Translations under genes and position numbers: made by a program
Part shown: piece by piece, positions 1,944 through 5,087 of the stretch
Position numbering within the stretch: the first letter of the stretch is position 1
Layout of the letters: each line of letters starts with the position of its first letter
Source: a virus
Lineage: Duplodnaviria > Heunggongvirae > Uroviricota > Caudoviricetes
IMG/VR virus record: IMGVR_UViG_3300000357_000189
Reading direction: 5' to 3' (one strand)
DNA: 5,087 nt
The notes under the pieces: generated by a model
Told to the model about the DNA's origin: nothing
What the model saw: only the letters and a program-made list of their open reading frames with translations
The model's database searches: none

Positions 1944-2139
1944 ATGAGAAATCATACCACACACCCGCAAGGGCGGGACTCGCACAACCTGAATAAATAC
2001 ATNNNNNNNNNNNNNNNNNNNNGCACAACCGCGCGTGATTACCATTGAGGCCACCAGCGAACAGGAAGCACGCCAGCAATCTCCGGCTGGCTGCGTGATG
2101 GTATTTGCTGCCCGTATTCGTCAGGGGGTAGGCTTATGA
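1944..2139 (+). CDS. Hypothetical small protein, first gene of the rightward operon; spans N-run 2003-2022
   Basis: ATG 1944 follows SD GAGG (1935-1938): [19 protein letters not shown]... After the gap, another frame reads [38 protein letters not shown] with stop TGA 2137-2139 overlapping the next ATG (ATGA). The only frame open before the gap is the one containing ATG 1944. Confidence 0.45.
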
Positions 2140-2451
2140 GCCAGGAAATCACACTACAACAGGCAGCNNNNNNNNNNNNNNNNNNNNNNNNNNNNNNNNN
2201 NNNNNNNNNNNNNNNNNNNNNNNNNNNNNNNNNNNNNNNNNNNNNNNNNNNNNNNNNNNNNCCACCAAATCGAAGTTATTTGCGCACTGGCAGAGGATTA
2301 CCCTAGCATGATGACCGACAGCGAATCAGGGGCAATCATCGGCTTACTTAAACGCCTTAGCGGTGAGGTCTGCGTATTCCTGAGCGATGAACAGGAAAGA
2401 AGAACGCTTATTTCTAACGAAAAAAAATGCGGAGGGGTACATGTGCAATAA
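2136..2451 (+). CDS. Hypothetical protein (about 105 aa); spans N-run 2168-2261
   Basis: ATG 2136 follows SD GGGGG (2124-2128): [10 protein letters not shown]... After the gap: HQIEVICALAEDYPSMMTDSESGAIIGLLKRLSGEVCVFLSDEQERRTLISNEKKCGGVHVQ with stop TAA 2449-2451. It overlaps the next start by 11 nt. Confidence 0.5.
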
Positions 2452-2662
2452 AACCACACCGGACGCAGCCGCCGCCGCGCTCACTACGCTGATGCACGCG
2501 CTTATTGATATTTCTGTTATTGCTGACAGGGCGCATAAACACGCAGCCAGAGAATCAGAATGCATCTTCCATTTAGCATTTGTGCAGCTAAAAGCCGATC
2601 AGGCACTGGATAAGGCCGGAAAAATTATCATGGCTGATGTGCAGGAGGTGCACCATGCATAA
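2441..2662 (+). CDS. Hypothetical protein, 73 aa
   Basis: ATG 2441 follows SD GGAGGGG (2431-2437): MCNKTTPDAAAAALTTLMHALIDISVIADRAHKHAARESECIFHLAFVQLKADQALDKAGKIIMADVQEVHHA. The stop TAA 2660-2662 overlaps the next start (ATGCATAA). The ORF-track start at 2387 is less likely because it lacks an RBS. Confidence 0.6.
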   Translation: MCNKTTPDAAAAALTTLMHALIDISVIADRAHKHAARESECIFHLAFVQLKADQALDKAGKIIMADVQEVHHA

Positions 2663-3020
2663 TCTGTCAATTTCTGACCTTAACAGCATTCAGTTTGATG
2701 AGAAATTTACCGGGCAGTTGCTGGTCAATGTGGAGAACGGGCGCATAGTGCGTAATTATCACCTGCCGGATGGTGCAATTGCCGGAAGCGTTGAAGCATT
2801 GCTGGAACTGGCGGAACGTGCGCGACTGATTAAGCCGTCAACGAGCCATCACGATGATGATCTGCATTTTACCGGATGTATGGTGAGTCACTACGAAAAC
2901 GGCGTCGAGGTATCCTGTGAACGGCTGCGTGATGATTGCTGTTTCGGCACACTGCCGGAATTTATCGAGTTGCTGACCAGTTGCGGTTATCAGGTCATTC
3001 AGGGGGGTAAACATGCGTGA
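2655..3020 (+). CDS. Hypothetical protein, 121 aa, with a His/Cys-rich C-terminal half
   Basis: ATG 2655 follows SD GGAGGT (2644-2649): MHNLSISDLNSIQFDEKFTGQLLVNVENGRIVRNYHLPDGAIAGSVEALLELAERARLIKPSTSHHDDDLHFTGCMVSHYENGVEVSCERLRDDCCFGTLPEFIELLTSCGYQVIQGGKHA. Uninterrupted by N-runs. The stop TGA 3018-3020 overlaps the next ATG 3013. Confidence 0.65.
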   Translation: MHNLSISDLNSIQFDEKFTGQLLVNVENGRIVRNYHLPDGAIAGSVEALLELAERARLIKPSTSHHDDDLHFTGCMVSHYENGVEVSCERLRDDCCFGTLPEFIELLTSCGYQVIQGGKHA

Positions 3021-3331
3021 TGATCGTTTTAATTCCCTGAAACAGGAATTTTCCGGCGTTCCTGATGATGCGGCTGATGCGCTTTCGTCAATGCNNNNNN
3101 NNNNNNNNNNNNNNNNNNNNNNNNNNNNNNNNNNNNNNNNNNNNNNNNNNNNNNNNNNNNNNNNNNNNNNNNNNNNNNNNNNNNNNNATTAGAGCGGCTT
3201 TTTTCTTACTTTCCACGAGAGAATATAAATCAACGGGGCTTGATGTACTGAATATCGCCGCCGATTATGCGGAATATGTGGCAGAGGCGCGTTATAGAAG
3301 AAAATTTCCTGAGGATGTAAGCCATGCGTGA
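3013..3331 (+). CDS. Hypothetical protein (about 105 aa); spans N-run 3095-3187
   Basis: ATG 3013 follows SD AGGGGGG (3001-3007): MRDDRFNSLKQEFSGVPDDAADALSSM... After the gap: IRAAFFLLSTREYKSTGLDVLNIAADYAEYVAEARYRRKFPEDVSHA with stop TGA 3329-3331 overlapping the next ATG 3324. Two separate short genes cannot be excluded. Confidence 0.45.
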
Positions 3332-3645
3332 TATTTACCACGAAACAATAGACCGCGCATTTCTTGCACTTTCTCACAGTGAAAACATGCTGGAAATATT
3401 GCGNNNNNNNNNNNNNNNNNNNNNNNNNNNNNNNNNNNNNNNNNNNNNNNNNNNNNNNNNNNNNNNNNNNNNNNNNNNNNNNNNNNNNNNNNNNNNNGCT
3501 TGAAACACTTGGCGACAATGAACGCGACAAACAAAAATCAAGAATTGCCACGGCATTAATAACGCTTCTTGAGCCTGTAATAATGGAACTGCAAGAAATA
3601 GATCTATTGCACGACAGATATAAAGAACAGCACACCGGAGAATAA
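3324..3645 (+). CDS. Hypothetical protein (about 105 aa); spans N-run 3404-3497
   Basis: ATG 3324 follows SD GAGGA (3311-3315): MRDIYHETIDRAFLALSHSENMLEILR... After the gap: LETLGDNERDKQKSRIATALITLLEPVIMELQEIDLLHDRYKEQHTGE with stop TAA 3643-3645. The frame differs across the gap. Confidence 0.45.
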
Positions 3646-3650
3646 AAATA

Positions 3651-4035
3651 ATGAAACTTAAATATTCTGGCTTAACTGCCAGTGGCAACACTCACCCTAA
3701 ATTTACGCGCGGCGATATTTACCGCGACCAGTACGGCGGCACGGTAATGATTAAGGGCGTGGAAGAACGGCGCGTAACCTACCGCCGTGAAGGTTACGAA
3801 TATGATTGCGTGATGCCTGTTTATCAGTTCCGGCGTGATTTTTCTCTGGTACAGACCGCGCCGCATAACGTGTCCACCAGCAACGCCAGGGCACGGGCAA
3901 ACATCCAGAAGCTGAAAACCATGATTAACGGANNNNNNNNNNNNNNNNNNNNNNNNNNNNNNNNNNNNNNNNNNNNNNNNNNNNNNNNNNNNNNNNNNNN
4001 NNNNNNNNNNNNNNNNNNNNNNNNGTAAAAAATGA
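3651..4035 (+). CDS. Hypothetical protein (about 125 aa); 3' end within or just after N-run 3933-4024
   Basis: ATG 3651 follows SD GGAG (3637-3640): MKLKYSGLTASGNTHPKFTRGDIYRDQYGGTVMIKGVEERRVTYRREGYEYDCVMPVYQFRRDFSLVQTAPHNVSTSNARARANIQKLKTMING... After the gap, either TAA 4026-4028 or TGA 4033-4035 is the stop; the latter overlaps ATG 4032 as ATGA, like other junctions in this operon. Confidence 0.55.
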
Positions 4036-5087
4036 AACTGGCACCGAACGTAAAACAGCAGTCACGCGGCATAAAACACAAAGAAACAGAAGTCATTATT
4101 TTTGCGGGTAGTGATGCCTGGTCACACGCAAAACAATGGCAGGAACATGACGCGCGTATGGCCGGAGATAATGAGCCTCCTGTGTGGCTTGGGGAGCAGC
4201 AGTTATCCGAACTGGATAAGCTGCAAATTGTGCCNNNNNNNNNNNNNNNNNNNNNNNNNNNNNNNNNNNNNNNNNNNNNNNNNNNNNNNNNNNNNNNNNN
4301 NNNNNNNNNNNNNNNNNNNNNNNNNNNNNNNNCGCATATTCAGGGCCGGATATCTTGCGCCAGTAATGATAAAGGCGATTGGTCAGAAGCTGGCGGCAGC
4401 AGGCGTACAGGATGCAAATTTTTACCCTGATGGTATGCACGGTCAGAAGGTGGAGAACTGGCGCGAATATCTGGCCCGTGAGCGCCAGAATCTTTCTGAT
4501 GGTCTGGTCATTGAGCTTCCGGTAAAGCAAAAGGCGCAACTTTCGCAGATGGCGGANNNNNNNNNNNNNNNNNNNNNNNNNNNNNNNNNNNNNNNNNNNN
4601 NNNNNNNNNNNNNNNNNNNNNNNNNNNNNNNNNNNNNNNNNNNGCGCGCAGCTGCTTGCCGATCGCTTTGATGGCGTTTGCGTACATCCTGAAAGTGAAA
4701 TCGTTCACGTATGGCGCGGCGGGGTATGGTGTCCGGTCAGCACAATGGAACTTAGCCGCGAAATGGTGGCGATCTATTCAGAGCACAGGGCCACTTTCAG
4801 CAAGCGCGTAATCAATAACGCCGTGGAAGCGTTAAAAGTTATTGCCGAACCAATGGGCGAGCCGTCCGGCGATTTGTTGCCGTTCGNNNNNNNNNNNNNN
4901 NNNNNNNNNNNNNNNNNNNNNNNNNNNNNNNNNNNNNNNNNNNNNNNNNNNNNNNNNNNNNNNNNNNNNNNNATGGTGCGCTTGACCTGAAAACGGGGGA
5001 ATTTTCCCCGCACACGCCGGAGAACTGGATCACCACGCACAACGGCATTGAGTACACGCCACCAGCACCAGGGGAGAACATCCGCGA
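4032..5087 (+). CDS. Primase/helicase-type replication protein (P4-family primase / D5_N-like region), 3' end outside window; interrupted by N-runs 4235-4332, 4557-4643 and 4887-4972. The first segment (4032-4234) could be a separate upstream ORF.
   Basis: Coding-looking segments in successive frames: MKLAPNVKQQSRGIKHKETEVIIFAGSDAWSHAKQWQEHDARMAGDNEPPVWLGEQQLSELDKLQIV (4032-4234); ...YLAPVMIKAIGQKLAAAGVQDANFYPDGMHGQKVENWREYLARERQNLSDGLVIELPVKQKAQLSQMA (4333-4556); AQLLADRFDGVCVHPESEIVHVWRGGVWCPVSTMELSREMVAIYSEHRATFSKRVINNAVEALKVIAEPMGEPSGDLLPF (4646-4886); GALDLKTGEFSPHTPENWITTHNGIEYTPPAPGENIR (4975-5085). LADRF...W..W and G.LDL.TGE..PH.PE motifs are, from memory, characteristic of the D5_N / P4-type primase C-terminal region. 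Confidence 0.6.

Follow-up and report, generated by a model that had tools for sequence, protein, structure and literature searches.

Positions 1,944 to 4,035 of IMG/VR virus record IMGVR_UViG_3300000357_000189, a stretch of 5,087 nucleotides (nt) that is called the window here at its full length, hold seven small open reading frames (ORF1 to ORF7) on the forward strand, followed by a primase gene. This region is probably the early, replication-proximal operon of a phage-inducible chromosomal island (PICI) of the EcCICFT073 type and the counterpart of the left operon of satellite phage P4, with workings that we infer from P4. The evidence consists of the identity of the element, the family to which ORF1 belongs, a conserved long open frame in which ORF1 is nested, operator repeats that go with the alleles of a divergent YlcI/YnfO-family gene, a collinear cassette of small genes, and the pairing of a DUF4222 gene with a replicase gene. 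A first-pass annotation of the window had described a co-directional operon between a divergent switch and a satellite primase gene, and this description is supported.

Identity of the element

The window contains ten runs of N (275–406, 1062–1159, 2003–2022, 2168–2261, 3095–3187, 3404–3497, 3933–4024, 4235–4332, 4557–4643 and 4887–4972), and these do not preserve length. Runs of 20–132 N stand for only 3–47 real bases; the 20-N run covers 25, and the 94 N at 2168–2261 correspond to 9 nt in the real sequence. Any ORF length or frame that is read from the window across a mask is accordingly wrong. All ten unmasked segments are 100% identical to Escherichia coli EcPF5 (NZ_CP054236.1; locus L001), and the masked bases were filled in from this genome. 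A megablast search against annotated phages returned no matches.

In EcPF5 the window sequence is carried by an island of ~11.4 kb that lies between the two halves of tqsA. Its genes run from int and alpA through a divergent YlcI/YnfO-family gene and the seven ORFs to pri, and pri is followed by a small ORF, ssb, genes for a lambda-E-like major capsid protein, a D-like decoration protein and a protease-like protein, a 144-amino-acid (aa) TerS-N-like gene and one further ORF. As expected of a PICI, the int–alpA–pri core has a single orientation, with 91–99.5% identity to EcCICFT073 for these three, and the island falls in the PICI range of size and content (10–20 kb, its own attachment site, and no tail, lysis or large-terminase genes), its late region holding only capsid, decoration, protease-like and rppA-like genes. 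The 144-aa protein is 98.6% identical to c1503/RppA of EcCICFT073. Since Rpp redirects the small terminase (TerS) of the helper to the island cos site (PMC6739421), the island would carry the packaging-redirection gene that marks an EcCICFT073-type PICI. The P4 genes sid, delta and psu, which would mark a P4-like satellite, are neither annotated nor detected in the EcPF5 island. Judged from its sequence, the element is an EcCICFT073-type Gram-negative PICI and a mosaic sibling of the prototype.

Architecture of the operon

The genes of the operon are as follows, with coordinates in the window and protein lengths in the unmasked sequence.

1944–2139, forward: ORF1, 66 aa, isoelectric point (pI) 10.7, Icd-like and P4 Kil homologue by family match, 3' end of the long frame
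2136–2451, forward: ORF2, 76 aa (231 nt; the window holds 94 N), acidic; phrog_1478, E = 3e-28
2441–2662, forward: ORF3, 73 aa; phrog_5146, E = 2e-41
2655–3020, forward: ORF4, 121 aa, tandem duplication of a ~45-aa module (beta-hairpin plus helix)
3013–3331, forward: ORF5, 77 aa, acidic; phrog_24341 and phrog_2512, E = 1e-41 to 1e-49
3324–3645, forward: ORF6, 77 aa, acidic; phrog_2196, E = 8e-42
3651–4035, forward: ORF7, 99 aa, pI 10.2, DUF4222; its stop overlaps the replicase start (ATGA)
4032–5087, forward: 5' part of pri, the last gene of the operon, encoding a 584-aa primase/replicase; phrog_864, E = 1e-175

With the masks read through, all seven ORFs stay in place, and the starts, stop/start overlaps and Shine-Dalgarno (SD) sequences read in the first-pass annotation were found again in the EcPF5 sequence. 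The lengths of 65–125 aa that it had given did not stand, the N-runs having inflated five of the seven; the true range is 66–121 aa. ORF1 and ORF2 meet in ATGA, ORF2 and ORF3 overlap by 11 nt, ORF3 and ORF4 join at ATGCATAA, and the ORF4/ORF5 and ORF5/ORF6 junctions are each ATGCGTGA. A gap of 5 nt separates ORF6 from ORF7, and the ORF7 stop meets the primase start in a further ATGA. All seven ORFs begin with ATG and each is preceded by a G-rich SD sequence (GAGGT, AGGGGG, GGAGGGG, AGGAGG, AGGGGGG, GAGGATG and GGAGA).

Every one of the seven matches a PHROG family (E = 1e-28 to 1e-49). In nine related loci the median pairwise ratio of nonsynonymous to synonymous substitution (dN/dS) is 0.31 for ORF1, 0.42 for ORF3, 0.08 for ORF4, 0.37 for ORF5, 0.32 for ORF6 and 0.27 for ORF7, far under 1 at dS reaching 1.2; ORF3 to ORF6 are under purifying selection. 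There is no paralogy among the seven, a sequence search of the PDB found no relatives for any of them, and PADLOC-DB gave no match at E <= 0.1 for ORF1 to ORF7 or for the YlcI/YnfO protein, so that no known defence system was recognised. Use of the concatenated ORFs in tblastn yielded just nine weak records, and a primase-anchored scan of one genome per species yielded three loci, too few for an account of cross-species synteny.

It is very improbable that some of the seven are chance frames or decaying pseudogenes that go untranslated. The ORFs are short and most lack a curated family, the dN/dS test does not apply to ORF2 (its three sampled copies are too similar for the ratio to be informative), and truncated or frameshifted copies occur in loci L005, L010 and L011. 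Against this stand the PHROG families and SD sequences of all the ORFs, an order kept across divergent islands, the low dN/dS at high dS, and phage homologues of ORF2 with ~40% identity. By these signs the seven are real genes, and together they probably make up an early, replication-proximal PICI operon.

ORF1 and the long open frame

ORF1 scores 69.9 bits against the Icd-like family NF033153 of NCBIfam (curated cut-off 25 bits), its residues 19–62 aligning with model positions 1–48 of the 48-position domain, and with this model the 65-aa Kil protein of P4 reaches 76.1 bits. Homology of ORF1 to P4 Kil and to Icd follows from these matches, and inhibition of cell division or killing, as known for P1 Icd and P4 Kil (PMC10111431), is predicted for ORF1 from its family. 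A killing role has likewise been inferred for an Icd-like protein of strain ECOR61 (Silas et al., bioRxiv 10.1101/2023.04.06.535777). ORF1 also belongs to phrog_6196 (E = 1e-45), whose label 'transcriptional repressor' is probably a leftover of the old 'cI ORF' annotation of the same frame in P4. The phrog_6196 alignment begins 24 residues upstream of the ORF1 ATG, with a gain of ~29 bits, and the SD sequence and ATG that belong to ORF1 itself are kept in six loci.

ORF1 does not stand by itself as the first gene but closes an open frame of 340 codons.

1041–2139, forward (L001 8423–9445): eta-like long frame, 340 codons when unmasked

This frame begins 58 nt past the alpA stop, runs antisense to two minus-strand genes and to the promoter/operator region, and ends as ORF1. 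It contains no stop codon, compared with 21 and 23 in the other two forward frames. Under a null model in which the two minus-strand proteins stay unchanged while their synonymous codons are drawn anew and the DNA between genes is shuffled, 9–13 stops are expected (9.1 in this island), and none of the 20,000 runs per locus was free of stops (p < 5e-5 in each of two loci). A long open frame of 308–608 codons is found in seven of the nine related loci, starting from alpA or ant (at or near the gene end), and over the same stretch the other two forward frames hold 18–45 stops. The frame of EcCICFT073 runs for 428 codons from alpA into the Icd-like gene, a 305-aa long form is annotated by PGAP in strain EH031, and a capsid-forming PICI (cf-PICI) of Klebsiella has a gene for a 324-aa protein with a C-terminal Icd-like domain, after which come two small ORFs and then the primase. 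The P4 eta protein consists of an Ash domain and then an Icd-like domain. The P4 arrangement, in which nested kil/eta follows vis and the alpha primase comes after, is thus present in this island. In the gap that separates the stop codon of alpA from the initial ATG of the long frame there is a GC-rich hairpin (GGCGGC-ACGCA-GCCGCC, 989–1010).

The divergent switch

Between alpA and ORF1 the window holds a leftward transcript and a set of control elements.

795–983, forward: alpA, AlpA/Vis-family regulator with a GTG start; Pfam Phage_AlpA, E = 5e-17
1334–1522, reverse: 62-aa basic ORF, second gene of the leftward transcript (57 aa in the CFT073 annotation)
1565–1744, reverse: YlcI/YnfO-family gene, divergent from the operon; NCBIfam NF041551, 59.7 bits; phrog_949
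1795, 1811 and 1836 (within 1795–1846), no strand: three 11-bp palindromes GTGTT(C/T)AACAC that bracket the promoter
1806–1834, forward: sigma-70-like promoter TTGACG-17-TAAATT, between the YlcI/YnfO gene and ORF1
1871–1943, reverse: candidate cis-antisense RNA over the ORF1 leader and ribosome-binding site; sub-threshold Rfam symR match, unproven

The AlpA protein is 93.5% identical to that of EcCICFT073, where AlpA is the master activator and drives expression downstream of alpA, and in PICI induction the helper acts through alpA rather than the reverse (PMC6092414). The YlcI/YnfO protein has, by eye, the look of a ribbon-helix-helix protein. Its small neighbour gave no family match and is 100% identical over 57 aa to WP_000130015.1 of CFT073.

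Only 0.12 matches to the palindrome are expected by chance, and none of 200 shuffles reached the observed count of four. The GTGTT(C/T)AACAC triplet is limited to four loci that carry essentially one YlcI allele. Where the allele is another, the repeats at this position differ too: the window has GTGTTnAACAC three times (1795–1846), EcCICFT073 (locus L004) has GTGGGCCACAC twice (3719–3763), and L013 has GTGCGATTCA three times (3159–3249). Because different repeats go with different YlcI alleles, the evidence points to the YlcI/YnfO protein as the candidate operator-binding repressor, and it suggests allele-specific immunity groups among the PICIs of E. coli. A further copy of the palindrome that has one mismatch, GTGTTAAGCAC (795–805), falls exactly on the alpA start codon (GTG), and through it the same regulator could act on alpA too.

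The symR match over the ORF1 leader has a score of 33.3 bits (E = 0.0035), where the gathering score is 61, and it recurs in near-identical leaders only, so it gains no independent support. The folding z-score is -4.4 for the antisense strand over the leader and -3.2 for the sense leader. By eye, the antisense region shows an extended -10 element (TGGTATGAT) in ORF1 codons 2–5 and a GC hairpin with a U-rich tract behind it. An antisense RNA over the Kil-like gene, in the manner of a type I toxin-antitoxin system, is possible. On the minus strand, a GC-rich hairpin with a T-run that was found by eye at 1212–1246, ~90 nt downstream of the 62-aa ORF, is likely the terminator of the leftward YlcI transcript; our terminator scan omitted it, its loop being above the limit of the scan. 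The int-alpA RNA of Rfam (RF02996) was detected above its gathering score in locus L011 (419–486, 45.5 bits) and was not detected in the island of the window.

ORF2 to ORF6 form a swappable cassette

The order of the small genes is strictly collinear across the related elements, and their presence is modular. Gene contents of sampled elements are as follows.

The island of the window and that of EH031: ORF 1-2-3-4-5-6-7
EcCICFT073: ORF 1-2-3-5-6-7
L012 and L013: ORF 1-3-5-6-7
L014: ORF 1-6-7

The first-pass annotation had recognised none of the seven products, which holds for ORF2 to ORF6, as searches of Pfam, NCBIfam, PADLOC and the PDB found no relatives of these, but not for ORF1 or for ORF7, which are Icd-like/Kil and DUF4222 proteins, respectively. 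Four of the five cassette products have a pI of 4.8–5.1, and that of ORF3 is 6.3. Homologues of ORF2 with ~40% identity are encoded in the early-left gene arrays of Fels-1 and of Klebsiella phages. ORF3 is strongly allelic, being 50% identical to the EcCICFT073 copy; ORF5 differs from its EcCICFT073 counterpart at the C-terminus, and ORF6 is present in eight of nine sampled elements.

ORF4 is sporadic. Each of its two modules has the pattern 'FTGxxLVxVENG...' followed by a helix and then '...VIQG', and the repeats match each other in BLASTP with E = 1e-5. The AlphaFold2 model has a hairpin-plus-helix secondary structure twice over, with a confidence (pLDDT) of just 50, too poor for a fold search. 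An exhaustive profile search of 1.84e9 proteins placed the family in 31 representative clusters, and its genuine distant relatives have one to three modules. Natural variants of 73–97 aa have a single module and appear to have lost the other through recombination between the repeats. Two apparently distant matches were discarded as low-complexity or leucine-rich-repeat artefacts. A precomputed match to Pfam PF27490 exists on two close homologues.

The first-pass annotation had also suggested that ORF4 may bind metal through its His/Cys-rich C-terminal half. There is next to no chance that ORF4 is a Zn- or Fe-binding protein of this kind: the EcPF5 allele does have five Cys and seven His, but in an alignment of 30 homologues C75 and C89 are replaced by Arg in most, the CC pair (YC, CH) and the HHDDD run (PHDN, PRDN) are both variable, and residues 45–95 are deleted in many natural variants, among them those of 73–97 aa. 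The C-terminal region is moreover a diverged second copy of the N-terminal module, and no Pfam zinc finger matches it. In view of the duplication, the single-module variants and the unconserved Cys and His, with candidate ligands substituted or deleted across the 30 homologues, the metal site was rejected.

ORF7 and the replicase gene

ORF7 scores 85.7 bits against PF13973 (DUF4222; gathering threshold 27 bits), with residues 16–68 on positions 1–53 of the 53-position model, and its fold is a small SH3/Tudor/KOW-like beta-barrel with a C-terminal helix. A weak match to P4 orf151 (E = 0.11) was not confirmed by Pfam and the homology was rejected. In the sampled loci the DUF4222 gene always lies directly upstream of the replicase gene, and operons that run from an Icd-like gene to DUF4222 also stand before unrelated replicases, namely a RepA-family helicase or a DUF5906 protein (L009 5293–6690, L010 4991–6391, L011 5188–6993). 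This indicates module exchange at the DUF4222/replicase junction. The Pri protein itself is 40% identical to P4 alpha over 440 aa. A lambdoid helper-type prophage at icd in CFT073 has its own divergent DUF4222 gene beside xis (L002 15192–15431), so the family is common to satellites and helpers.

Proposed workings and alternative readings

In P4, translation of kil/eta blocks Rho-dependent termination, and the transcript then reaches the primase gene (PMC10111431). There translation downstream of the internal promoter PLE begins with kil, which constitutes the 3' end of eta, and eta starts by vis. This mechanism was reportedly first described by Forti et al. in 1999. ORF1, as the last 66 codons of a frame held open from just past alpA, is placed as kil is within eta. 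If the likeness extends to function, two kinds of transcript would reach the operon. The one activated by AlpA upstream would be translated through the long frame, its ribosomes shielding it from Rho across the switch, where it would run antisense to the YlcI/YnfO gene. The other, from the internal promoter, would provide the short Kil-like ORF1 only and would be held down by the YlcI/YnfO protein and perhaps by the antisense RNA. The stop/start overlaps may hand ribosomes on from ORF1 to ORF7 and to pri, in which case synthesis of the primase would depend on translation of the whole string. The Kil-like peptide would cause division arrest or killing upon induction of the island, the products of ORF2 to ORF6 would be small, mostly acidic accessory proteins that probably bind or inhibit host or helper proteins, and the DUF4222 barrel protein may be the fixed partner of whichever replicase comes next.

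Several observations weigh against this proposal. Its steps on transcripts, coupling and products are argued by analogy. The C4, isrK and c4-a1b1 RNAs gave no match at E <= 1 in L001 6400–18000; since an immunity RNA of the P4 type is absent, the control circuit differs from that of P4. Such RNAs do occur in a related island at tRNA-Pro (L012), where isrK (80 bits), C4 (76 bits) and an a1b1 target lie at 3792–3990 within an Ash-type long frame upstream of the Icd-like gene, in the company of a YlcI gene and the same operators as in the window, so that members of this operon family differ in RNA-based immunity elements. BLAST found no homology of ORF2 to ORF7 to P4 epsilon, orf151 or orf106, and the fold of ORF7 is so generic that no function can be read from it. 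The long frame is broken in two of the nine loci (Shigella L005 and L013, both decayed-looking) and the SD sequence at its start codon is weak. About 370 nt of it overlap bona fide minus-strand genes, and for that part alone P is about 0.31; the third codon positions of both strands coincide there, and openness over these genes could be a by-product of this shared-wobble register. Most of the frame has no recognisable domain in our search and an odd, Cys-rich composition, which fits selection for openness and not for a conserved fold.

A different account would make the operon primarily a module of abortive infection or superinfection exclusion, in which a phage accessory protein triggers the Icd-like peptide, the small proteins and the primase, and the resulting death or arrest protects the population. 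We regard this as possible, if rather unlikely. Satellite operons made up of an Icd-like gene, small ORFs and a primase gene can serve as effectors of cell death that phage accessory genes set off: in ECOR61 the death triggered by phage orf24 maps to two small ORFs and an Icd-like gene, and suppressor insertions in the P4-type satellite of ECOR15 fall in int, AlpA, an Icd-like gene (eta-type), a small ORF and the primase (bioRxiv 10.1101/2023.04.06.535777). The arrangement in ECOR61 is however different, with the two small ORFs upstream of a 122-aa Icd-like gene, PADLOC contains no defence family that matches the seven ORFs, and the phenotype could be that of unscheduled satellite induction. 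The cell death described by Silas et al. fits either such a consequence of induction or a selected defence role; in the former case the defence reading follows from the interpretation of the region as a P4-like early operon and is not an alternative to it. It is unlikely that one or more of ORF2 to ORF6 are directed at the helper, as the first-pass annotation had suggested, whether as derepressors of a lambdoid helper, analogous to epsilon or Ash, or as inhibitors of helper replication or late functions. Their position is that of epsilon in P4, their products are small and mostly acidic, the cassettes are swapped among islands as arms-race genes are, and ORF2 has relatives in phage early-left accessory arrays, but no match to the Derepression (PF25738), Ash, Ant or Bro families was found, RppA, the product of a gene downstream of ori, accounted in full for the interference of EcCICFT073 with lambda (PMC6739421), and induction runs from the helper through alpA to the PICI and not the other way (PMC6092414).

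The interpretation as a counterpart of the P4 left operon can also be carried further, to a version that we consider doubtful. The long frame would here be a translated 'anti-termination track' rather than an ordinary protein, along which ribosomes escort AlpA-driven transcripts through the oppositely oriented repressor operon; head-on collision and antisense pairing would silence the YlcI/YnfO gene and the 62-aa ORF, which would unlock the Kil-like gene, the cassette and the primase, with the swappable acidic products of ORF2 to ORF6 as a reservoir of inhibitors of host or helper functions and DUF4222 as a universal replicase co-factor. Such a track would make a commit switch for Gram-negative PICIs, with an allele-specific protein immunity module in place of the RNA immunity of P4.

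Distribution and significance

Among 5426 complete E. coli genomes, 1821 contain parts of the operon and only 128 contain at least 80% of the whole. The alleles of the individual ORFs are matched in 1305 (ORF1), 260 (ORF2), 572 (ORF3), 347 (ORF4), 768 (ORF5), 750 (ORF6) and 1238 (ORF7) of these genomes. Roughly one in three of these genomes thus has some of the operon, which is also carried by the best-studied Gram-negative PICI. The stretch from alpA to the primase gene has been called the dynamic 'Bro zone' of Gram-negative PICIs (Tommasini et al., PMC10111431). Our literature search found no functional studies of any gene between alpA and pri; Fillol-Salom 2019 cloned and tested for interference only genes downstream of ori (PMC6739421), and later engineering work left the alpA–pri region untouched.

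A Kil homologue within an eta-like frame offers a concrete model of how induction by AlpA may reach the primase gene and a mechanistic link between PICIs and P4, and it may account for the damage that forced induction of EcCICFT073 does to the cell. The 'global repressor' of Gram-negative PICIs may be the product of the divergent YlcI/YnfO gene, whose operators are allele-specific. New inhibitors directed at host or helper may reasonably be sought among the variable small proteins, which are candidates for the cell-death phenotypes of Silas et al. as well.

Comparison with known systems

The early-left arrays of lambdoid phages, such as those of Fels-1 and of the CFT073 helper prophage at icd, are also runs of small overlapping genes that include ORF2-like and DUF4222 members, but they lie beside recombination and excision genes rather than before a replicase gene, and they share two of the seven families. 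The immI locus of phage P1 (c4 RNA, icd, ant) gave the Icd-like family NF033153 its name. According to work attributed to Riedel et al. in 1993, the Icd-family protein of P1 is reportedly translated first and overlaps the next gene, its translation gating downstream expression. The gene downstream in immI is an antirepressor, as opposed to a small-ORF cassette with a primase, and control is exerted by the C4 RNA that the island of the window lacks. The 'superinfection exclusion' locus of an ECOR61 prophage and the P4 satellite of ECOR15 (Silas et al. 2023) likewise combine an Icd-like gene, small ORFs and a DNA primase; the ECOR61 locus, likened by gene arrangement alone, differs in the size and place of its Icd-like gene as described above.

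The left operon of P4 has the order vis, eta/kil, CI RNA, epsilon, orf151, orf106, alpha. It resembles the operon of the window in having an AlpA/Vis homologue upstream (45% identity), a Kil/Icd-like peptide of 65–66 aa encoded by the 3' end of a longer frame with its start by vis/alpA, and a string of small overlapping ORFs with a primase homologue last (40% identity). The island of the window differs from P4 in that it has no CI/C4/isrK RNA, no Ash domain in the long frame and no homologues of epsilon, orf151 or DUF5375, and in that its long frame is crossed in antisense by a divergent protein-coding switch (YlcI/YnfO and the 62-aa ORF). The first-pass annotation would have abandoned its view of the operon had all seven ORFs proved homologous to core proteins of P4 or PICIs; a P4 homologue was found for ORF1 only.

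The closest relative is EcCICFT073 of E. coli CFT073 (NC_004431.1 1377930–1388654), the prototype Gram-negative PICI, whose architecture matches that of the EcPF5 island (PMC6092414). Its genes come in the same order, from int, alpA and the divergent YlcI/YnfO gene with its small ORF to the Icd-like gene, small ORFs, DUF4222, pri, ssb, capsid, decoration and rppA. Six of the seven operon genes are shared, with 50–99% identity; the highest values are those of ORF2 (98.7%), ORF1 (98.5%) and ORF7 (95%), followed by ORF5 and ORF6 (about 90%), and outside the seven Pri reaches 99.5%, next to the 98.6% of RppA. EcCICFT073 differs in that it lacks ORF4, carries other alleles of ORF3 (50% identity) and YlcI (59% identity) with other operator repeats, has an extra PerC gene, and is integrated beside roxA/phoQ, whereas the EcPF5 island lies in tqsA. 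What the first-pass annotation took for a candidate undescribed module is, as sequence, the EcCICFT073 operon, parts of which are widespread in E. coli; it is not a new kind of system, and the prototype PICI already contains it nearly gene for gene.

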